Assembly (NCBI GenBank): GCA_010093705.1
Contig: MU006095.1
Location: 558,001-622,000 of the forward strand
Direction: 5' to 3'
Origin: Patellaria atrata CBS 101060
Lineage: Eukaryota
Length of the DNA: 64,000 nucleotides
Position numbers and translations under genes: made by a program. The notes under the pieces were generated by a model. That model was given only the letters and a program-made list of their open reading frames with translations. It searched no databases and was not told the origin of the DNA. Shown here piece by piece: positions 26,795 through 45,622 of this stretch. Each line of letters starts with the position of its first letter. Positions within the stretch are counted from its first letter, which is position 1.

Positions 26795-28517
26795 TTATAG
26801 ATACTTTGACCTGATAGCCTGACTCAACGTACTAATCCGACTCAAACCCCCATGCTGCATGTTACTCAACAGGGCCTCCTCGAGCGCGGATTGCGTCACG
26901 CTCGTATCTATATCATATAACCGTCAGTCTCCATCAACTCAAACCAAACCACCCAGAATCACACAACCCATCCAGACAGCCCAACATAACTCCCAAGATG
27001 AAAAAATAAATAAAAATAAGATAGATAGACAAACTCACCATCCAAATCACTAAAACTACTCCCCATACTCGGACTCCCCTCGCTGCCCTCCCTCCTCTTC
27101 CCCCGGGGCGAGAGTCTCGCCAATTCGGCTCTGCGACGTGGACTCAGGGGCCCCGGCTTCCTCTCCCTCTCCCCCCTCTGTCCTTGTCCCGAAGCCGAAA
27201 CCGAAGCCGAGGCCAACGAACTCGCGGACGAGTCCACCGCAGGTTTCTTCCCCTCCGCCCGGCCCTGTTTCGGCAACGTGGTCGTGGCGCCTGGATCCGG
27301 ACCTCCCGCCGCCACGCGCGCGAATGGTAACGAGTGCGAGGACGATTCCGAGTCTTCCTCTGCCGCGGTCTCGGGGCCTGAAGAGAGGGTTGAAAGGGCG
27401 GGGTGAGGTTTGGCTTTGTGCCGGGGGGCGCGGCGGAAGATTTGGGAGCGGTGGGTGAGGTTTGTTTCTTTTGTTTCGGAGGAGGTGGAGGAAGAAGAGG
27501 AGGTGGAGGCGGGGGAGGAAGCCCCGGTGGGTGGTGTAGGGCGGCGGCGGATGGGAGGGTGGCGGAAGGAGGAGGGGAGGAGGCGGGATTGGGTTATTGT
27601 GTTTGTGGAGGGGGTGCGGGAGAGGGTTGAGACTTGGGTGGTTATGTTAGCTGGACCCAAGGTATGCTTGTTGTTTTGCGAAATTGGAGGGAGGGAAAAG
27701 AAAAGGGGAAGGGGGGAGGGGGGAGGGGGGAGGGGCTAACCAGGACGTGGGGTGCCGGGTACGCTTGCCTCGCCTTTTAGCAATGGGCTTTCTTTCGGTC
27801 GTATAGATAGTGCGGAAGGGGCGCAGGAACCTGATGCGTGAGTGTTTGTTTGCGTTGCGGTGAGTGATGTAGGGACAAGGTAGACTTACCTCTGCCTCCA
27901 CTGCCCAACCTATGCATCGGCACTCCGCCCGCGGGCGTCGCAACGCGTTCGGAGCCTAGCGAGGGTGTCGCGTTCAGGGCGCCGACTTTCTTCATCTGCG
28001 CTTTGACGTGCGAGAGGTGCCGCTCGTAGAGCCATGCCGCTTGCTGGAGTATGAACGTTGGGGAGACTTGGAATTTGTTCGCTCTGCGGTTTTTCTGATC
28101 AGCTGGATCTAAGGGTACCGTAGGATCGAGTATGCGTACAGTTCTTGCCCTACGAACACGTTAACCTGAGGGTTAGAAAGTGTAGGGGCATTTACTCACA
28201 GTCCAGATCACCCGTCTTCGGGCTCCGTGATATGATCTTCCACAGCTGCTTGTCTTTCGCGGCATCCCACTCCACCTGTTAACGTCAGAACCCCAAATGC
28301 CCACTACCTTACAAATAACAAAATCTCCTACCAGCGGCGGATCCACAAAGTCTCCCCTGGCAAAAGGCAGTCGGATGAGCACGGTATAGTGGACCTCCGG
28401 CTCTGGCGGAGGTTGTCGCTTGGGGGTTTTCGTTTCTGCTTTCGGGGCGAGGTTTGCGGATGGTTTGCGGGAGTGGGTACCCTTGGATGCAGGACCTGCC
28501 TGCGATGGTGGTGACAT
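26795..28517 (-). CDS. ATG29: Autophagy-related protein 29 (multi-exon, includes a 10-nt microexon 28140-28149)
   Basis: Spliced N-terminus HYTVLIRLPFARGDFVDPPLVEWDAAKDKQLWKIIS...DWQELANKFQVSPTFILQQAAWLYERHL. C-terminus SMGSSFSDLD...TSVTQSALEEALLSNMQHG, with TAA at 26795-26797. Confidence 0.88.
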
Positions 28518-33564: not shown

Positions 33565-35259
33565 TCAATGTGCCTTTCCAACCTTGGTCTTCTCCATCTT
33601 CGTAGGTTGAATCCGAGCCATCATCTCCTCCTTCGTGATTAAGTGATCTATCCTCTCCAGCAAGCCTAGTAAATTCTTCATATTCCCACTCCACTCATTC
33701 AATACGTCATCTGCATCTCTTGCCTTCGCAAAGTTGACAATCTTGGCAGGACGGTCAATCTTCGCGTAAATGGTCTTTGCAGTAACGAGCTCGCTAATAT
33801 ACTTTTCGGTCTCGTCTTCCGAGAGATCGAGGAGTTCTGTTAATCGGGGAATTTGAATGCGAGTGTAGTACTTAGCTACCACTCGGACATTGTGCTCGAT
33901 GACGCGTTTTCGTAGGTCCTGCCAACGTTGGAAAGCCTTTTCATCTCCTGACTGGCCCTTTTCTGGGTCGAAGATATCGGTGTTACAGAGATAGGCACCG
34001 AATCGCTTCGCAATCACAGGCCATCTCATTAATTCCGGGATAGTGAAAAGTTTAAGGATCTGAGATTCCTGAGGAAGCATGGCGTTGCGGCTATCCCTGT
34101 GGATGCGGTGAAGTAGATCTGATTGCTCATTGTCGTGAGGGGCGAGGAGAACGAAATAAATAACCCTTTGCAATGTCTGAAAAGCATTAGTGACGCTATA
34201 GATATATAATGACAAAAGGAACGCACCGCTCGCAACTGAGCCTCATTGTTCTCCACTGCCTCAGTATCTAGTACTTGTCTGTAGTGTTTACACACGTCCA
34301 AGTACTTATCCTCATGCTTCGCCAGAATAATTTGTTGCTCATAGTACCGTAGCTTGAGGTCCGTGACATCATCCTCCGGCTCTGGTGGAGGTTCATCCGC
34401 TGACCGCTTCTTCTCTTTCTCCTCTTTCTCCTTCTTCTCCTTTTCTAATTCCTCTGGTGTCTTCCTGGGTTTCCTTATAAAGTACCTTGTGCTGATCTTT
34501 CTACTCAGGATACCGGCTTGTGTCCAATCGCCCTTGTCGATACAAAGCGCGACTTGCTCCAAAATGAACTCAGTCTTCTCCCTTCTAGACATAGAACCGA
34601 AAGTTTCCACTTGAAGTTCGCAAAGGATGTCTGCGGCCGCAGTGATGTCGCCTTGCTCTTTCTTGATATTCGATAATATCCTTGTAACCCGGGCGCGTTC
34701 GACTTCAACGAATATCTTGTGTATTGTTAGCAAGGCCACTACAAATTCCAGAGAAATGCTGAAAACCGTACCTTTCCCTCCGTTACTGTCCTTAATGTCT
34801 CGATGGTTGATAGCTTCGTGTCAAGGTTTGGCGCATCGTCCAAGAAACCCATCACTACCTGCACCATCTTTGTTGTTGCCTGTTTGAGCTGTCCATGCTT
34901 CTTGGAGAGTAAGAGGACCTGCTCGTTCAGAAAGTTCCAGTCTCCAGAGTTCTTGCATATCGTAACTATGCCAATAAGTATCCTAGACGTCGAGGCGAGG
35001 TCAGAGGCCTGTGGTATAATCAGTCGACGCTTTAATTTAGCGCGGTTGAGAAATAGTGTGGTACCTGTCTGGTCTGCTTCTCAAGGGGGAGTAGCTTCTC
35101 TACTGCTGCTTGGGCATCAGACTGAGAATACATTAGCATAAAGTACTAGAAAGTAGAGGGAATGAGCTACCCTACCTTCGCGATTTCCTCCGCCTCTGGT
35201 AACTGCTTGTCAACCTCTTTGGTAAAGTCCTTCTCGGCTTTGAGCAGGCCTTCGGACAT
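33565..35259 (-). CDS. RPN5: 26S proteasome lid subunit Rpn5 (PSMD12), multi-exon
   Basis: Start MSEGLLKAEKDFTKEVD, then LLSKKHGQLKQA, IFVEVERARVT and LQVETFGSM. PCI domain EHNVRVVAKYYTRI...IYAKIDRP...HLITKEEMM. Confidence 0.95.
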
Positions 35260-35409
35260 GGTGGCAGTATTGAGGGGTGGATTTCTCAGTATCTAACACA
35301 CAGGAGGAAACAATTATAGTCGGTAAACGGTCAGAACGAGGGAGATGCGGTTAGTTGAGTGAAATGGAATGGATGAGGCGTTTTGTCGACGAGATGTTGC
35401 TCCAGCACC

Positions 35410-35415
35410 GGAGCT
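35410..35415. promoter_or_regulatory. Possible Rpn4-type proteasome gene element GGAGCT
   Basis: GGAGCT lies about 150 bp upstream of the RPN5 ATG. I recall this hexamer as enriched at proteasome genes of filamentous ascomycetes. A 6-mer can occur by chance. Confidence 0.3.
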
Positions 35416-37398
35416 CAGGTAACCTTTGGGTCTTGGCTCAACGCTGACTAAGCTGCGATCTATAAGTTAAAGTTAACCTGGTAAACCTCACTTCCTACTT
35501 CATCAGGCAATTGAAGGAAAAACTGTCACTGTTCTCACGAGCTGAAGAGATTCGTACTACTCGTATGGATTTCACCCCATCTATTCTATCGCTAAACATC
35601 TTTTATTCTTCCCAAATCTCTGTCCCTAGATAGGAAGTTTCAGTGTAGTTTTCTTTAGAAAGTATTTACCGTTTGTTAATCCCACTACTCTGAAAAAAGG
35701 TTTTTTTTTACACTCAACGCCGCAGTGATCTTTATTCCATGCGTAGGATTAGTGTAGCGGTGTGGTATTTAGTCAAGTACAGTTAATTTCCATCGTCGAT
35801 TAACCTTCCTATGACAATCGATAAAACTTGAAGAGGATACGATAGTTCAGATGTTGCAAAGAAATATTAGCTCTTTCATATCATATTCTCCTCTCTCCTT
35901 TCTACTTTATTATCTGGTTAAAGGAAATATCATTCGACGAAACTTCGTCGAGTCTACATCAAACTTCCCTTGACATGAACTGGAGGTAGGTCTAGCATAG
36001 CTTTTTGCTAATTTCGGTGATGCGTAACTTTTGTCTAACCTATGTCTTTTGGAAACTCTTTGAACTCTCAAGTAGTGATCTGTACCATGAACTCCAGCTG
36101 TCCCAGCTTCGATCTAAGGATACTCAGACTCGAGTCACGCCGAAGCAAATCCATTCGATACATTACCCATCGTTGAATTACCGCCTCAGGGAGTCCGAAC
36201 AAGATGAGAGTATCCGCATTGTTACAGTCAGGCATCGCCAGTTCTATACACCTTGCGATGTCAGTCCGCGCGCTGTCAAATCCGGACCCTCGCGACACCT
36301 CTATGCTGCATGCTACCACGTCATACACTTTCTATACCCAAGTGTACAGCCACCGCGCTGACTATGGTAGGGGAAATTCGGGTCTGGGTCTTCGAAAGCG
36401 GGTTTGCGGCTTCATATAGTATTTTGCAAAACAGAACAGAAGTATATTACCATCGAAACCTTCAAACACTAATACGAATGGTATCTACTGGAATGTATAC
36501 GCCGTATCTCTGACCTCAGGATTCAGGTGTACGAAAACTGTTAATTTACGTGCTTGGGACATACGGTACATATTCTGTGGAAATATAGTTATCCCTCTTG
36601 ACTGGCTGTACGAGGTGAATCGGGCTCTCACCTCTCCGTTAAAAACCTCATTGTACCTAAATAAAATGCATACTGTATTCTGTACAGTCAACTGAACGTT
36701 CAGCTTTGACTCCGCAATTGTATATTATTAAGATGTTCCAGCAGCATATTTCGACGATCAAGTTTTCAGAACCAAAGTTTGCACAAACGTTCACTAATCC
36801 AGTGCGCACAGAACTTTTTACATGGTAAATCACGCTCCAGGCTCCACTATGATAGGCTTAACCGCACAGCAGACTCACTCCAAAGCTCACAAAATACAGA
36901 TTATGCACCCGACAGAACTATGCCAGAGGGGGCGGGGAGGGGGGGGGAGAAGTATACAATTACACTGTCGAACAGCTTTCCAAAAACGCTTTTATCGTAC
37001 CTCTCTCCTCAATAACACTCGCTCGCTGAAAAGGACAATAACCAAAGACACGCTCAAAACCAGAAAAGTGGTATAAAGCAACACCTCTCATGGAACCCCA
37101 ACCGCCCATGATTAATCCAACGATGCAGAGGCATCTCGAGACATCTAATAAGAGGACACTGAGGTAGGTGTTGGAAAGGAATTTTGTACAAAGGCAAAGA
37201 GGTAGTCACAGATGCAATGCCGGCTCCAAAAGCGCCGCAAGAATTGTATCCAAAATCATCAACGCTATATTGCGTGAAAAGTTATAACCAAGCTCGCTGC
37301 TTCAGCCAACTATATCCTCGGAAAGCAGTGTGGATGTGGCGGGCAAGGACTGATCACCTGCAGTCACATTAGCCTCCGTGTATTATTTCGATCTGGCT

Positions 37399-39954
37399 CT
37401 AGTAGAATCCTCTACTCCTCTCGCTTCTTGATGGACTTGTCCTGCTTCTTTCATCCTCCTCGAGCACATCGCTCAACCGTGTTGGATGGTGGTGTCTGAG
37501 TCCCCACTCTCCGGTTCCCAGATTCCCACCGCTGCCATACGATGCACCTTCGTAATCAGGGTCGGATCCATACTGCACCCCACTACCAGAAGCCACGCCA
37601 GAACCTGAGGCGTAGCCGGGGCCTCCGTATCTTTGCGCGTGCTGTCTTTCGCGCTCGATATCATCGCCGACATCATAATCGTCGCTTGCTTCACTTCTGC
37701 TCACCGTGGGTTGTCGGTACGGTATTGGACGGCCTTCTGTATCGAGCATGATGTTGCCAGCGGCGTCTATTTGATACTCTTCCTCGTCCTCTTCAGTGGA
37801 TTGCACATACGACTGTGCGTCGGATGCTGTGCGAGGACGCCCCTGGGCGGAGTGGATGAAGGCATCTGGGTGTGCATAGAGGGCGCCGGCAGGGCCTTGC
37901 GAAGTAGAGTTGTAGGATTGTTGAGGTGGTTGTGATGATGGAGCTGTAGGACGAGTGGGTTGGAGAGGGGCGGGGGCAGTGACGGGATGAGAGGTTGGTG
38001 CTTGGGATTGAGGAACCGCTGTTCTTGCGGTTGTTCCTGATGAGGGTACTTGCTGCGTCCTGTACGATCCCTCCGCAATGCTTGGGACGTCTGGGGCATG
38101 TTGTTGGCGTTGATCTTGGGGAAGAGACTCCCCGCCATAGGGATCTGTGTTTGTGGGAGACTCGCCCTCTTCGTACGAATATCTTTGTCGTACACGAGGG
38201 TCTCTGCCGCTCTGGCTACCCGGAGCACTTTCCTCACCACGGTACGGATCGGCTTGACGCTGGCTCGATTGTCGACTTGCCATACCTGCGGCCATGGGAA
38301 CGACTTGGACACCGCCGATCAACGTAGGTTGGCCTTCGCGAAGTGACATGGTGCGTTCACGTTCTTCCTGTTCCCGTCTCCCTAGCTCTTCCCATGCTCT
38401 TCTCGCTTCTTCTTTGGAAATCTGCAGCTCACGTCTCATTTCTAAGACCAGCTTGTCTGCATTTCTCTTTGCTATTTCGGCGCGTTCTGCAGTTTCCACT
38501 GCTTCTACCCGCGCACGGCGTTCGACCTGGATTGTTCGCTCCAATTCCGCTTGCATTTCCCTTGCTCGTTCCTGTTCATTGCGTGTTTCGAAAAACCAAC
38601 GTTGGAACTTTCGCTCTGATGAGGCTCGCAACCTTTGCAATTCCACCACTGCGTGAAACAAATTGGCGCCAGCTGCTGATAGATCCGTAATCTGTCTCGA
38701 CATTTGCTGCGCTAAAGGCTCTCGTCGAACCTCTTCAACATTTTGTTCCAACCGTCGGATCCAAAATGATGTTAGCCCTTCCCAATGGGAAGAAAGCTGT
38801 TCCCATCTTTCGAATGCATGTGGAAATGTGGAGATTGTAGGATCTTTAGCCTGTGCACTTTGTGATGCTGAGGCACCAGCTGGAGCAGACGGTTGAGCCG
38901 TGGAGGGACCTGTACGGGGTTGTTGTGAAGTTCCCGGGGTCGCAGACGGCTGTCTCGAGTGAGCAGGTTGCGCACGGGAAGTTGAATGACCGGCAGAAGG
39001 AGCCTGTATCTGTTGTACGGGTCTCGGTTGACCTTGCGACTGAGATGTTGCGCGCGGCCTATGTGAAGGTGCACCGGTTGTATCTGCGGCGGGCAGTGTG
39101 GTAGGTTGATTTGGGGGACCACCTGCATTACCTAGGATCGTCTCCGGGTCTCTCACCGATGAACTTGGTGGCACCAATCCTCCTTCACTTACATTTGTTC
39201 GACGTGGTGCCGACGTATCTCTCGGCTGACCAGCAACGCCAGCTGCAGGGGGTCTCCTACTTTCATCCTGGGCTCGTGATTGTTCCTCAGCAGCTCTCTG
39301 CTCTTCTCGCCTTTTTGCGGCTTCGCGTTCCTGTCTTCGATTCATGATATCGCGAGGGGTCCGTACCTGACCAACTGGTACAGGGCCGGCCGCAGCGCGT
39401 GAGCCACCATTCGCAGAACGGCCACTACCTGCACCTGCTAGGCCTCCACCACTCAAATCTGACATCTGCGCGTTCTCCTCCACCCGATCCGGCGTGAATG
39501 GGTGGGGTTTACGGATGGCCTCTTCTAGGGTGTATAAGATGGCAGAAGCAGTACGTCTAGAAATGCGAAGGGCAGGATGGGGAGCAAAAGGATCGGAGGA
39601 AACAGAAGGATAGCGTTTGCGGCCGGAGCTGGAACCGACTTCTTCAGTGTCGGCAGCAAAGCGAACTGTTTGCTGCGGACGTGTTGAAGTCTCGAGTGAA
39701 GCGGATCTGGAACGCGGTTGCGGCTGCTGTTCCTCGAGATTCGGTGTGCGCCGAAGGCTGTGAGGAACGCTTCCAGAGGAACTCGAGGGTCTTGAAGGGT
39801 CTTGAGGACGAAAAATGGGTTGGAGATGCTGCTGGCGTTGCTGGAGAGAAGGAATATAAGTTTCGTTGCCGTAAACGTCGTGGGTCTCGTGAGTGGGTAC
39901 GCGTTGGGTTGGTTGTGACAGGTTTGGGGCTGCAGAGCTGCCTTGTGATGTCAA
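37399..39954 (-). CDS. Fungal coiled-coil protein of unknown function; start uncertain (TTG 39954 or ATG 39465)
   Basis: 851 open codons. Ordered core FPHAFERWEQLSSHWEGLTSFWIRRLE...GANLFHAVVELQRLRASSERKFQRWF, a coiled coil, and C-terminal HHHPTRLSDVLEEDERS. Confidence 0.88.
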   Translation of the reverse strand: MTSQGSSAAPNLSQPTQRVPTHETHDVYGNETYIPSLQQRQQHLQPIFRPQDPSRPSSSSGSVPHSLRRTPNLEEQQPQPRSRSASLETSTRPQQTVRFAADTEEVGSSSGRKRYPSVSSDPFAPHPALRISRRTASAILYTLEEAIRKPHPFTPDRVEENAQMSDLSGGGLAGAGSGRSANGGSRAAAGPVPVGQVRTPRDIMNRRQEREAAKRREEQRAAEEQSRAQDESRRPPAAGVAGQPRDTSAPRRTNVSEGGLVPPSSSVRDPETILGNAGGPPNQPTTLPAADTTGAPSHRPRATSQSQGQPRPVQQIQAPSAGHSTSRAQPAHSRQPSATPGTSQQPRTGPSTAQPSAPAGASASQSAQAKDPTISTFPHAFERWEQLSSHWEGLTSFWIRRLEQNVEEVRREPLAQQMSRQITDLSAAGANLFHAVVELQRLRASSERKFQRWFFETRNEQERAREMQAELERTIQVERRARVEAVETAERAEIAKRNADKLVLEMRRELQISKEEARRAWEELGRREQEERERTMSLREGQPTLIGGVQVVPMAAGMASRQSSQRQADPYRGEESAPGSQSGRDPRVRQRYSYEEGESPTNTDPYGGESLPQDQRQQHAPDVPSIAEGSYRTQQVPSSGTTARTAVPQSQAPTSHPVTAPAPLQPTRPTAPSSQPPQQSYNSTSQGPAGALYAHPDAFIHSAQGRPRTASDAQSYVQSTEEDEEEYQIDAAGNIMLDTEGRPIPYRQPTVSRSEASDDYDVGDDIERERQHAQRYGGPGYASGSGVASGSGVQYGSDPDYEGASYGSGGNLGTGEWGLRHHHPTRLSDVLEEDERSRTSPSRSERSRGFY

Positions 39955-41612
39955 TTTGACTGTACAGGCAAACCCCTAGCGGTCTACAAGGCTCTGGTAA
40001 GAGGGGCGACGGCGTAAATTATGAATTATTCTCCCAAAATGTAGAGAGGAGGGATAGGGTTATTGTGAGGTTGTAGTGTTTACAAAAGCTTCGAGGGAGC
40101 AATTCGAAGGCGCAAAATCCGTGGCAAGGAAAAAAAGACGGCCTGAGAAAATCATGGATTAGTATGATATGAAGAAGGGTGAAAAGATTTGTCTAGGGGT
40201 GAATTGGTCCAGCTTGTAGAGTTGTAAAGCGGTCGAGGTGGCTGGAGGCTGGTGGAGCTCTCTCTTCGAAATGGCTGGGTGACGGTGAAAAAAGGTGGCA
40301 GGTGCCGATAAAGCTGGGCTTTACTGTACCCTTGCCGAGCTTCCAGCTTGGAGCAATTTTGAAGCTTCAGCAACTCTTTTGAAGAAAAAATCTTTAAACT
40401 TACTGCACGTCATTACCATTGACCGCTTGTTGCCCAAATATCGTGTCGCGATCTCAATTGCTCTTTCATATGCAGTGGACGGATGCAATTTGAGGGTCTT
40501 GAGCGGTCGGTCCTCGCCTCAACCGAGTCGGCGACAACAAAAGCTCAACAACGTCACGACGAAGAAATCATAACGACAAGCGAACACTGAAGATGAGGCG
40601 CGGAAGGAGAAGAACAGCTCAATTGGATGCATACGACTGACATGCCTAAGGTGGAGGAGGCGACTGGAACGAATGCGATGTGAGAGAAGAGGATGATGAT
40701 GATGATGATGCGAGGTAGAGGTACCGTTTTACTGGCCGGACTCGGTTCCCAAGCCACTGTATAACGTTGCCAACGTCGAAATCGGGCTTTGTGGTGGTCT
40801 GGATACGCGTAGGACATGCGAAAGAAGAGCTTTCAGGCTTACGAACCGACCGCAAGTAAAGAGAATGCGGGAAGGGGGTGAAAAGGAAACCTTGGAGTAC
40901 TCCAGTCGTATCGTTCCTGATTGTTTGTGGGAAAAAGTTACAAGCTAAGGCTTGCCATGCTCACAACGCATACCTGCATAAGCGCCTTGGACAGATGCCC
41001 ATCATCTTTTGTCCATCGCCTTGAAAGCTCGAAAAGAAAAAGCAGATTCCATTTCAAAAGTACGGAGAGAAGAAGAGGTCTTTACGCTGTTATGATCTTG
41101 GATGACAATCCTGTCCTTGGTCTCGATGGCTCAACGACAAAGCTATGCCATACTCAATGGAAAGGATTCCTATCAGATCAGGTTTCATTTGAGATGCTAG
41201 TCTTCTTTATACTCGTCAAATCACTCCGACGTTCTGTCTGTGGACATTCCTCACGGTTCTCATACCACATTCCTGGGTAGATTGGTTAGTTAGCCTATCT
41301 AGACATTCCGGTATTCAATCAACTTACGGCCTTTACTATAGAAGCCGTCGCGTGCCGAAATTAGGATATGGTTTCTGCATCGGAAAAAAGTATGTTCGGG
41401 TGTTCATAAAATCGTGTTTCGACCAGGACATATATAGTGCCGCCGGACCTCGTTATTCTCGAGCTATGCCTGGAACCACCATTCTATGAGACCCTTTTAT
41501 ACTCCAGTAAGCAGAGTAAACGATGGGCTGACGTACAGGTACCATAAGCCGCGAGATATACCATTGATAAACGAGCTAAGTTGGTGTTTTCTCGTACTGA
41601 CGGGAGTTATTC

Positions 41613-42458
41613 CTAAAACATGCAGAAGCATGTACGGTGGTATACAACATCTTCATCATCATCCGTCTCTTCGGATACCTTACGGCTTCTTTTCTTTCCC
41701 TTCTTTCTCGTACGGTTGTTGGATTGTACCGGAATCTCCTCAATCTCTCCTTCCTCTGGTTCCTCTGGTCCCATTAACCTTCTCAGTTCCCTCATCTTCC
41801 CAGCGGCTCTCTTCGCTACCGTATCCGCCTTGTTATTCCCCCCGATACAATGACCTGGGATCCACCTGAGTTCAATGGCGATCTTCAGGTCACTTAGTTT
41901 CTTTGCCAACCTCCGTATCTTTTGTACAATCTCTGATAATGGCTCTGATAATGGCTTTTTCAGTAAACCACCTATACCGCGTACCCCATGCAGCGAGTCT
42001 GTTAAGACAACGACTTGCTGTATATGGGGACCGCTCAGGGACCCAGCGATTTCGAGTGCCCTGGCGATCCCTTCCAACTCCGCAGCCGTACTCTCCCCAT
42101 GCCCGACCTGGAACCCGTACACTTCACTCTTCTGCCATTCCGAAGAGGCTGGTGTCTTATACACCACCGCAGCTCCTCCTGCCGTCTTGTATCCCTCGCC
42201 CTGCACCGAACCATCTGCCCAAAACACCAGCCTCTCCGGCACGATGGCTCTTTGGCTCTCTCTGAGCCCTGCGGCTTTTGCCTCTTCCCTTGGCTTGATG
42301 ACGATAGAGCCAGGGAACTCTGTTGGCACCCCTGTACTCTCTGTCGATGGTTGGGGAACAACGCCGCCCCTTTGGAGGTTTGTACGGAGTTTTTTATTGC
42401 CTCGGCTTTCGTCGTTGCCGAGTGAGCGCTTGTTCGTCTGTTGCCCAGCAGGGAGCAT
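41613..42458 (-). CDS. Stand-alone RNase H1-like protein (non-LTR retrotransposon-type RNase H domain)
   Basis: Motifs FWADGS, AELEGIARAL, LTDS, WIPGH and GNNKADTVAK give an intact D-E-D-H-D set. Single exon, ATG at 42458, basic and acidic C-terminal tail. Confidence 0.8.
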   Translation of the reverse strand: MLPAGQQTNKRSLGNDESRGNKKLRTNLQRGGVVPQPSTESTGVPTEFPGSIVIKPREEAKAAGLRESQRAIVPERLVFWADGSVQGEGYKTAGGAAVVYKTPASSEWQKSEVYGFQVGHGESTAAELEGIARALEIAGSLSGPHIQQVVVLTDSLHGVRGIGGLLKKPLSEPLSEIVQKIRRLAKKLSDLKIAIELRWIPGHCIGGNNKADTVAKRAAGKMRELRRLMGPEEPEEGEIEEIPVQSNNRTRKKGKKRSRKVSEETDDDEDVVYHRTCFCMF

Positions 42459-43831
42459 TGTGTGATCGAAGAGATATGCGTACGTGTACGCGACGTTCAA
42501 AATTGATGTGTGGTTGTGGTAGGTTGACCGATAGCTAGGTTCGACAGAGGGTGTGTGATGATGCAGTGTATTTTAGACCAGCAAACAGCACTTTCAACAT
42601 ACCATTCGCTTACCGCCTTGTCAACAGCGTTTTGCTAAATGGAGCAGGAACGGCCTTTTGCGGTCGACCGACACGGCAAGTGCAAATAGGGGTCTACGAT
42701 CCCAATACCTTAGGGATGCAGCTTCAAATGTCAGCATGTAGGTATTGTCAAAATCATTTCCCTTTCACTTTTACTAGGTCTATCTGTTCTTTCATAATAT
42801 CGGAGTATTATGCCTCTCCCTTCTGCATCAACCGCTATAGGCGACTTCAACAAGCGCTGTTTATTGTACAGTCAGACCTGTGCGCAACTAGCCCCTCCTT
42901 TCAAGTTTTATGAAGCACGCCCTCCGTCTCTTAATCAATATCAGCGTCAGTCTTTTCCTAAACTCGACTGTATACAATCATCCCCCTACGCAAGATCTGG
43001 CGTACCTCCAACCTGCAACTTCACCCTCCCCGTCTTTCAGTCTACGGAATTACGACATCTTCAACAAAAGTCCCTGCTGTACATCATACACACATCCAAC
43101 TGTAGGCGCAAATTGAGCTCTCCCACCTCACTTCAAGTCCTTTATCCCACACAGCGAACGGCCTTCCAATCCATCTGTCAATTGTCCCGTCCCACGCATA
43201 CTCAAGCGCAGACGTAATCTCAAGCTGTACCCGCTCTATTGTACCCCTCTTCTCTATCTTTTATACGTAGTACGTGGTAAATTCAATGGTACGGAGTACC
43301 CTTTTGCTTTCGTTCTGTGTCGGATGACGTTGGTGATTCTGTGCGCAAAATCCCCGTAATTCCCGAAGTCAGGCCGAACCAGCCCAAACACTGAGATTTG
43401 TGCTCGTACGTCTGTTAGGATGGGAGTAAAGGCCGTATTGTATACTTGACACCGATATTATTTTCTACATACCATCCGAGAAAGGGATGGAGACTCTTCA
43501 TGGTCGAACAAGAGCATGTGATATCCAGATTACCTCGTACGGTTGCCCTGACAACAGGCTACTCCGCTCTGAAGCATCGGTTGACGCCAGATGACACAAG
43601 TCTTTTTAGGGTATAGTTCACTAAGACGTTAGGGAGGAAAGCGATGGTAAAGATGTACCTGTTGTGCAAAAGGAAGATACTACTTCAAATATCCTATCAT
43701 TATATTTACTCATTATCTTCCATTTCCGGATTGATTTATACATATCCTGCATAATTCCCCATTATTTTACTTCAAATCCACTCATATGAACTCCGTCGTC
43801 TCCCACATCCTTTCCCCCGCCCCCCCCCCCC

Positions 43832-45622
43832 CTACGCAGACGTCGTAGCAGTAGGTTCGGGCAAGGGCACAAACGGCTCCGTATGCGTACTCTCCGCTGT
43901 CCCATTCGTCCCATAATCCCCAGTAACAACCCTCCCCCCATCCGCCAACACAAGATGATGCAACGTGCGTCTGAAATGTTCCAACGTCGCCACGGGTTGA
44001 TAATACGGCGTCTCATGTCCCGCCTCATAGATCCGCGTGAAGCTAAAATTCCCATACTCCCTCACCTCGCCATACTCGACCCCATCGACCGTGAACGGGA
44101 CGTACCCCGCGGCGCGGAACCGATCGGAGTGGGTGTAGTTGAGGGCGAGGGCGACTGCTTCGCCGCCGAACCAGTTGCAGATGTAGTCCGCGTCGCCGTA
44201 CTGCAGGGCGACGCGGACGCCGCGGTCGAGGATGCTTTCGAGGTCGGATTTGAAGTTTGGCCAGACGAAATCGCCGGTCTGTTGGAAGCCGGTGCTGACG
44301 TAGGGGCTGCTGGCGCGGGTGTAGTTAATATTTACGCCGAGGGCTTCTTGGGTGGAAGCGAGGTTGAGGAAGTCCAGGAAGTAGTCTTACGCTGGAGTTA
44401 GCTTTTCGCGTTGCAAAAGGTGGCGACGTGCATTCCGGGATTCGGGAAATGCGAGACTCACCTGGAGGGGTGGGATCATCGTATGGATGTCTGATGTCGT
44501 ATACACCACGACCGCCGAACTCGTAATATGGTTGCTCGACTAGGCTGCGGCACATTGTGGTCGCTGCGGAACAAACGCGGTAGCCCTCTTCGGTGCTTCT
44601 GTCGAGTAATGCGCAGTAGGCGATCTGGTCTCTGCAACCGCTGGGGAAGTAATAAGCCTGCTTCATGAACGTGTAAACGGTATCATTGATTGCTTTGATT
44701 CCGTAGGTATTGTTGACGGCAAACTCGGGATAGTAGGGTGCTTGAATGCCTTCGTCGATGAGGCCGTTAATGATGCCCAAAGTATCCATTTGGAGCGCAG
44801 TACCCGGCATGGTGCCATTCTGGATAGCTAGATTTTGGTCGTAGAAATAATCATAAAAGCCAGGACCGTAATGACCCCCGTACGACTCGGTCCACAAATT
44901 GAAAGTGCGGTTGCTAATGTCGGAATCTATTCTAGTTGATAGGTCTAAGAAAGCTTGGATGATATGCCATGCGCCCACGGCAGCAGCATCGGTGGTGTTC
45001 GTCGTGTCTGGATCAACTATGGAGTATCTTCCGTCTGGAGGGGCTTCCGTAGAATTGAGGAATTCGCCAGTTTCCGGGTCTACGCTCCCTAAGACGGTCG
45101 TTTCGTAAGAAAAGCCTACCCCGACGGGTTGCGACAGGTAAAGCATGTTCGAGACTTCATTCCAAGAATACGGGTTCAGCTGGGTTTTCAGTTCTTCAGT
45201 CACGTTGCATGGTCCATGTTCCTGGAAGAGACCGATGAGCGAGTCGGAACCGGGACCACCATTCAACCACCTTTAAAATCAGTCATTATCTGGTGAGCAT
45301 TAGAGTTACATTGTGCTTACAGAGTCAGCGGTTTCTCAGACGGGTTTTCTCTCGCTTCGAAAAACCAAAAGAACATGTTGGTCTTCTCATTCAAGGATAT
45401 ATATCCAGCATAATCATCAACACCTTCAGTTGTTTCGCAGACACCCGCTTTCCCGGGTTGCTTGTATCGAATCTTCGCTCCCTGAGCAGATATTATCTCC
45501 GTAACACCTGTGGGGTCTGCGGGAACTTGACGTTTGATTATATGGCCTGGGATAGATCGAGCAAGGCCGAATGAGGAAACAGACGCCGCAACGATGGCAA
45601 CGGACACGAGAGACGTCAACAT
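43832..45622 (-). CDS. Secreted serine carboxypeptidase (peptidase S10, carboxypeptidase S1-like); introns near 45271-45319 and 44388-44460
   Basis: Signal peptide, [20 protein letters not shown], catalytic Ser in [20 protein letters not shown] and catalytic His in [11 protein letters not shown]. Confidence 0.93.

Follow-up and report, generated by a model that had tools for sequence, protein, structure and literature searches.

A conserved N-terminal domain probably translated from a non-AUG codon, at or beside a UUG, in an uncharacterised protein family of filamentous ascomycetes

The subject of this study is a gene on the minus strand of a 64,000-nucleotide (nt) stretch of DNA from Patellaria atrata CBS 101060 (contig MU006095.1, positions 558,001 to 622,000), which is referred to below as the window and whose first letter is position 1. 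Comparison of this gene with its orthologues suggests that translation of its conserved N-terminal domain begins at a non-AUG codon, either the UUG at position 39954 or one beside it, an interpretation to which we assign a probability of about 0.8. The gene spans 37399-39954 and its full-length product, counted from the TTG, has 851 residues. An uninterrupted frame of 858 codons, counted stop to stop, runs from 39975 to the stop codon at 37401-37399, and the TTG is the first near-cognate codon past the in-frame TAG that precedes it. An earlier note on this DNA (the original prediction) had stated that the frame is open upstream of its first in-frame ATG at 39465, that TTG 39954 lies 163 codons earlier in the context GTCAAA-TTG, and that the extension includes a protein-like block. 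All of the coordinates were found to be correct, the context was confirmed, and the block was located at 39567-39487. The features of the gene are as follows.

39976..39978, minus strand: in-frame TAG, which closes the main frame 7 codons 5' of the TTG
39952..39954, minus strand: candidate UUG start (TTG), context GTCAAA-TTG-ACA, A at -3
39466..39954, minus strand: 163-codon N-terminal extension, free of ATG in all frames and conserved as protein
39919..39921, minus strand: CTG, a further near-cognate codon in the frame, 11 codons past the TTG, context CCAAAC-CTG-TCA with A at -3
39487..39567, minus strand: block RISRRTASAILYTLEEAIRKPHPFTPD, the best-conserved part of the extension in protein alignments
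39463..39465, minus strand: first in-frame ATG, its Met kept in all orthologues examined, weak context CAG-ATG-T
37399..39465, minus strand: AUG-initiated part of the open reading frame (ORF), 688 codons plus stop, with the central core and the C-terminal HHHPTRLSDVLEEDERSRTSPSR motif

The CTG at 39921 is a possible additional start codon. A form of the protein initiated at the AUG would be without the RISRRTASAILYTLEEAIRKPHPFTPD block. Contigs from two DNA sequencing runs, which probably represent the window's own source sample, were identical to and colinear with the window over 34000-44000; the window sequence is therefore sound. A search for sequencing runs covering 37300-40800 listed no RNA run.

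A protein search with the stop-to-stop translation gave 1632 relatives at E ≤ 0.001, the best 120 of which were examined. The named relatives among these were mostly 'hypothetical protein' entries from Dothideomycetes, with some from Lecanoromycetes and Geoglossomycetes, and many of the 120 spanned 97-100% of the stop-to-stop ORF, which indicates that the extension is conserved protein sequence. When a Sordariales-type orthologue (L032) was used as the query, 1690 relatives were obtained at the same threshold, and many Sordariomycetes were named, including Thermothelomyces thermophilus (MYCTH_2142157). The family members share the central core, which is highly conserved and coiled-coil-like, and the C-terminal motif. 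They are known as 'hypothetical protein' of Pezizomycotina, with no informative name, and a protein atlas held only 'hypothetical protein' clusters of Ascomycota. Scanning the stop-to-stop translation against Pfam gave no family at E ≤ 1 and none above the gathering score, and no Neurospora or Aspergillus orthologue with a gene name was found among the best 120 matches of either protein search. The family is uncharacterised and is spread over several classes of filamentous ascomycetes.

Alignment of the window protein with 19 relatives showed conservation that began at the window residues K-L-T-S-Q-G-S (consensus LTSSGP) and spanned the whole extension. The Met encoded at 39465 was invariant in all 20 sequences, and the block that precedes it, RISRRTASAI..LEEA.R.P..FTPD..EENA.M, was among the best-conserved parts of the protein. 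The gene models annotated for this family in eukaryotes either had N-termini unrelated between species, started at the conserved Met, or were flagged as partial; seven partial models were named in the first search, six of them starting within the extension without a Met, and three were named in the search with L032. Gene callers that permit TTG and GTG starts began their models at the aligned start codon, which was printed as L, V or M.

Orthologous DNA was obtained by scanning metagenome contigs, which yielded 80 loci. Two of these (L015 and L043) did not contain the N-terminal region, and the remaining 78, together with the window, gave 79 sources. In 78 of the 79, the first in-frame ATG after the upstream stop codon was that of the same conserved Met, and where neither a contig end nor an internal intron interrupted the locus, the ATG-free in-frame extension reached 242 codons. 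One locus, L049, was considered as a counter-example and rejected; compared to its close relative L046 it carries deletions of 25, 30 and 34 nt, and its ATG is off the homologous frame. A GT..AG intron was present within the extension of three loci (L003, L005 and L012), after ...SLQLRQ and with the frame kept; L014 has the same split, its junction being one that was not read. In these four loci the first exon starts at a GTG in the context F-A-V-T-S-S, with a stop codon a few codons upstream. The intron inside the extension is a gain in this one subgroup.

The ratio of nonsynonymous to synonymous substitution rates (dN/dS), which the original prediction had proposed should be below 1 upstream of the AUG, was estimated by the Nei-Gojobori method on 20 pairs of orthologous loci. 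The synonymous rate (dS) of the extension was saturated in two pairs; in the other 18 the extension gave dN/dS values of 0.11-0.33 (0.17 for the window compared to L001). The core gave values of 0.03-0.17 in the 13 pairs for which it could be estimated. These values show that the extension is under purifying selection as protein in the main frame. In all 13 pairs with both regions estimable (e.g. L010/L013 and L032/L052), the synonymous rate was lower in the extension than in the core, example values being 0.27 and 0.89. The lower rate points to an extra constraint at the nucleotide level, of which ATG avoidance is just a part.

The codon at the first conserved column was read from 30 aligned extensions, which include three near-identical pairs. 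The column held TTG in 23 sequences, GTG in five, CTG in one and ACG in one, and the base at -3 was A in 19 and G in 11, a purine in every case. TTG made up 15.3% of the 711 Leu codons in the same exons. As a control, six invariant Leu columns of the core were examined; TTG was present in 1-5 of the 17-30 sequences at these columns, and all types of Leu codon occurred. The start column encodes Leu or Val depending on the lineage, and it does so almost always with TTG or GTG and with a purine at -3, which argues for a near-cognate start rather than a structural Leu. Protein conservation begins at this column, and it was the sole column fixed as TTG/GTG across the lineages sampled. In most lineages an in-frame stop codon was located 3-10 codons upstream. 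A conserved near-cognate codon, one of the checks suggested in the original prediction, was therefore found; orthologues with an ATG at this position, which the same prediction had named as a possible refutation, numbered none among the 30 for which the DNA was checked, and this result excludes a sequencing error or a private mutation.

Two other features of the sequence around the start codon were considered. In the Dothideomycete loci the start codon is surrounded by TGACGTC, which was examined as a CRE-like DNA site. This reading was set aside as the leading account, since other lineages have different bases following the TTG (TCG, TCT, GAA, CAT) yet keep the TTG itself. RNA folding was assessed in 32 sequences. 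There was no start-boosting hairpin in the region from +7 to +66 downstream of the UUG (mean z-score of 0.05 relative to shuffled sequences), and the upstream region from -66 to -7 had a mean z-score of -0.69, a value driven by the Sordariales-type loci.

The six Sordariales-type loci (L032, L028, L052, L048, L070 and L046) all contained an invariant 8-bp inverted repeat, GTCACCAC..GTGGTGAC, with a loop of 4-6 nt; it occupies the region between approximately 30 and 8 nt 5' of the TTG. Its 3' arm provides the in-frame TGA, and the upstream folding z-scores were lowest in these loci. The repeat may represent either a hairpin in the RNA or a palindromic DNA element.

Depletion of ATG in the orthologues, in all frames and down to the conserved AUG, was also seen, as the original prediction had anticipated. 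In 45 distinct sequences the extension contained 16 ATGs in any frame in 21,966 nt, compared to 264 in equal lengths of downstream sequence and to 119 expected from dinucleotide composition. The density of ATGs, in number per kilobase (kb), was profiled over 29 loci with the following results.

300-600 nt upstream of the start codon: 6-10 ATG per kb
-200 to -100: 3.4 ATG per kb
last 100 nt before the start codon: 0 ATG per kb
start codon to conserved ATG (14,346 nt): 0.8 ATG per kb
first 200 nt past the conserved ATG: 16-23 ATG per kb

In most loci an out-of-frame ATG (frame +1) was present soon past the conserved ATG, at a distance of 22-61 nt; in the window it is located at 39408-39410, a distance of 55 nt. 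As out-of-frame ATGs appear just past the conserved Met, ATG avoidance ends at that Met. That the depletion breaks off so sharply at the first AUG is the signature of selection on scanning ribosomes, and it fits leaky scanning from a weak start to that AUG. Alternatively, the lack of ATGs might protect the mRNA from out-of-frame initiation and from decay.

Within the window itself, minus-strand ATGs are located at 40155 and then at 39465, with none between them in any frame, a gap of 690 nt; no ATG is present in any frame in the 489 nt from the TTG to the ATG at 39465. These results bear out the earlier statement that the minus strand has no ATG from 39466 to 40152. The accompanying figure of roughly 10 expected ATGs was too high. 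Mononucleotide shuffling of these 687 nt, repeated 5000 times, gave sequences with 6.9 ATGs on average, 0.06% of which had none, and a first-order Markov expectation gave 3.4, which corresponds to a Poisson chance of zero of approximately 0.03. Since the Markov expectation is just 3.4 and the gap is only the second-longest ATG-free stretch on the minus strand of the window, its significance from the window alone is only modest; it is the orthologues that make it significant. The longest such stretch measures 851 nt (27917-27066). It overlaps a Pro/Ser-rich stop-to-stop ORF of 258 codons (26959-27735) with no Pfam match, and it could be an effect of composition alone or another AUG-poor leader or extension.

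The leader was compared in eight Dothideomycete-type sequences (the window, L001, L006, L011, L008, L010, L013 and L024). The leader features of the window are as follows.

40143..40403, minus strand: putative 5'-leader intron of 261 nt, identified by consensus signals only
39955..40142, minus strand: ATG-free leader of 188 nt, from the putative acceptor to the TTG
40404..40419, minus strand: 3' end of putative exon 1, with upstream ATGs at 40419 and 40413

The intron signals in the window consist of a GTAAGT donor at 40403, an ACTAAT branch sequence at 40163-40158 and the sequence CTCAG at 40147-40143, the acceptor CAG ending at 40143; the ATG at 40155 falls within the putative intron. The original prediction had suggested an acceptor near 40143 (ACTAAT...CTCAG), and the comparison supports it at the level of splice signals; the donor, a CTAAC-like branch sequence and a YAG acceptor were found in the same arrangement in all eight sequences. 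The putative introns were 139-261 nt in length, the donor was 290-450 nt upstream of the start codon, and the exon-2 leader was ATG-free and 148-188 nt long. The Sordariales-type loci had a comparable putative intron that ended approximately 50-70 nt before the TTG. Such an intron implies an exon 1 that has upstream AUGs and a short upstream open reading frame (uORF), a feature absent from the original prediction. If the window were spliced in this way, the ATGs at 40419 and 40413 would be joined to 40142 and would open a uORF of 32 or 30 codons, respectively, which ends at the TAA at 40061-40059. A putative exon 1 with ATGs was present in all eight sequences, with uORFs of 3-63 codons that varied in length, frame and sequence.

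Some further observations were made upstream of the start codon. A short motif, CCATTGCAAC, was located right after the putative acceptor in L006 and L011, and GCATTGCAGC was found there in L001; the window does not have it. In Pleosporaceae-type loci a TATAAG sequence approximately 130 nt upstream of the start codon was first read as a TATA box. The sequence may instead belong to the leader, because it is downstream of a consensus branch sequence and acceptor. Just upstream of the gene, the window contains a minus-strand ORF (41613-42572) that encodes an RNase H domain (PF00075, E = 3.5e-10) and also has a weak reverse-transcriptase-like match. This ORF bounds the promoter region of the gene studied here.

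Coding selection, a fixed near-cognate codon and AUG depletion in the orthologues lend comparative support to the earlier interpretation of UUG initiation combined with leaky scanning. According to this model, the UUG at 39954, in a good context (A at -3), would be read as Met by the initiator tRNA and its use would give the 851-residue protein. The UUG is weak, and most scanning 40S subunits would probably pass it. With no AUG in the next 489 nt, the passing subunits would reach the conserved AUG at 39465 and produce a 688-residue form, without the conserved N-terminal domain and its RISRRTASAI...FTPD block. The mRNA leader would probably contain one intron (40403-40143) and a short uORF starting in exon 1. 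We infer from sequence that the extension is present in the mRNA and that the UUG is the site used, and likewise the isoform ratio, the leader intron and the uORF.

The putative leader exon also bears on the alternative that survives best, in which the start codon is an AUG in a small upstream exon. In that case exon 1, beginning at ATG 40419 or 40413 and ending at 40404, would be joined through the donor at 40403 to an acceptor close to the TTG, and the extension would be ordinary coding sequence. The exon-1 ATGs of the window are in phase with three AGs near the TTG, giving exon-2 starts at -5, +13 and +25 with no stop codon in the joined frame, and the donor is a perfect consensus just past these ATGs. 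Furthermore, MTG... is the N-terminus of gene models from several species, and ATG-ACT-GGT... precedes the donor of L001. However, this arrangement did not hold in the relatives. The exon-1 ORFs stop before the donor in three of the eight sequences (L006, L008 and L013), and the sole in-phase AGs of four others (L001, L011, L010 and L024) are mostly GAG and lie at unrelated positions, some of them past conserved residues. The consensus branch sequence and acceptor are located 148-188 nt upstream of the start codon and are followed by an in-frame stop codon. L046, L061 and L075 lack any AG in the interval from the upstream in-frame stop to the TTG, and hence any splice acceptor there that could bring in an upstream frame. 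The model would also need an intron of at least 444 nt, which is long for a fungus, and it does not account for the fixed TTG/GTG or for a scarcity of out-of-frame ATGs that stops exactly at the conserved ATG. Splicing in frame to the AG near 39962, which the original prediction had named as a refutation, is formally possible in the window, where this AG is in phase, but is not conserved in the relatives. We consider an upstream AUG exon unlikely.

Also unlikely, and ranked next, is that non-AUG initiation does not take place mainly at TTG 39954 but is shared among a number of near-cognate codons in the frame that all precede the conserved block (for example the CTG at 39921). Several lineages have a second CTG or TTG Leu codon, also with a purine at -3, at a distance of 11-16 codons past the start column, ACG codons flank the TTG in many loci, and the Neurospora crassa cpc-1 gene initiates across several near-cognate codons (PMC5487733). 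The beginning of protein conservation at the TTG column, and the fixation of that column alone as TTG/GTG in all lineages, argue against this alternative. Exclusive use of the AUG at 39465, with regulatory RNA or DNA sequence rather than protein conserved upstream of it, would accommodate the nucleotide-level constraint seen in the 13 pairs and the many gene models that start at the conserved Met, but is very improbable given the low dN/dS of the extension, a frame that all lineages keep open, for as many as 242 codons, in the face of numerous indels, the frame-preserving introns inside it, and the presence of its last 40 residues among the best-conserved stretches of the protein.

Besides the phase and donor of exon 1 in the window, several points weigh against initiation at or next to the UUG. 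UUG is among the weaker near-cognate start codons in fungi. With respect to sampling, the orthologous loci are phylogenetically non-independent, and the choice of the near-cognate codon was guided for L020, L025, L063 and L080, whose alignment position is ambiguous. In a few NCBI models of other species (among them P0077, P0030, P0003 and P0025) an in-frame Met is placed a short distance before the L/V codon; if real, this would be a lineage-specific gain of an AUG at the same site. The conserved AUG is not optimised, 36 of its 41 distinct contexts having a pyrimidine at -3. ATG depletion is also incomplete, as the extension of some lineages contains one or two ATGs out of frame. These last two points argue in addition against a second start that has been tuned. 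Finally, the near-cognate starts of cpc-1 have less than 1% of the activity of AUG in vivo (PMC5487733).

As a gene with predicted non-AUG initiation, the gene described here is a further case of a known phenomenon, for which the closest precedent is cpc-1 of N. crassa. A search of the literature, confined to open-access texts, found no paper on this protein family; cpc-1 and fungal 6-phosphogluconate dehydrogenase were the cases that turned up. In Ivanov et al. 2017 (PMC5487733), cpc-1, the GCN4 homologue, is described as having an N-terminal extension that starts from near-cognate codons conserved across Pezizomycotina, with a dN/dS of 0.285 and a leader that contains uORFs. Both genes are from filamentous ascomycetes and have an ORF upstream of the first AUG that has no in-frame AUG and is under purifying selection; in both, near-cognate codons are conserved in a favourable context and the leader has uORFs, which are putative here. 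The conserved codons of cpc-1 are ACG, AUU and CUG, whereas that of the present gene is UUG (GUG in some lineages). The well-known functional protein of cpc-1 starts at an AUG, whereas here one of the best-conserved blocks is in the extension, which, unlike that of cpc-1, has no AUG in any frame. The uORFs of cpc-1 are conserved and overlap the extension, whereas the exon-1 uORFs seen here vary in length and frame. In addition, cpc-1 is backed by experiment, whereas the start described here is predicted from sequence.

Two other systems were compared in the same way. In fungal 6-phosphogluconate dehydrogenase a non-AUG start adds a peroxisomal targeting signal (PMC7214817). As in the gene studied here, the non-AUG start is upstream of the annotated AUG, adds an N-terminus and would give two isoforms per mRNA; the part added there is a cryptic targeting signal, whereas here it is a conserved domain of 163 residues. 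In human cases of non-AUG-initiated extension the usual codon is CUG, whereas here it is UUG. Conserved extensions of this type have been described for human genes, including one in the PTEN 5' leader (PMC4892431), and they resemble the present case in the phylogenetic coding signal upstream of the annotated AUG and in the combination of a near-cognate start with leaky scanning. The human cases concern another kingdom and other genes.

A broader and more tentative proposal, which we regard as possible but doubtful, is that this has been an obligate UUG-started gene since the common ancestor of the sampled ascomycete classes. In this proposal the UUG, the AUG-free 0.5 kb, the leader intron and the uORF would act as a sensor of start-codon stringency (eIF1/eIF5 balance, stress or nutrient state) that sets the ratio of the full-length protein to the short form. 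If so, the short form would be without an N-terminal regulatory domain that carries the RISRRTASAI...FTPD sequence, and hundreds of fungal annotations would have the wrong N-terminus.

Conserved non-AUG starts are known, and well-supported fungal cases are few. The comparative signal in this family is unusually clean, with a codon fixed as UUG/GUG nearly throughout, 0.5 kb of AUG-poor sequence extending to the first AUG, and a reduced synonymous rate. The gene models point to a systematic annotation error, in which upstream exons are invented, translation is started at an internal Met, or the model is marked as partial. Since the family is widespread and uncharacterised, the correct N-terminus is needed before the protein can be studied. 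The family would be a good natural model for a weak UUG start combined with leaky scanning in fungi.

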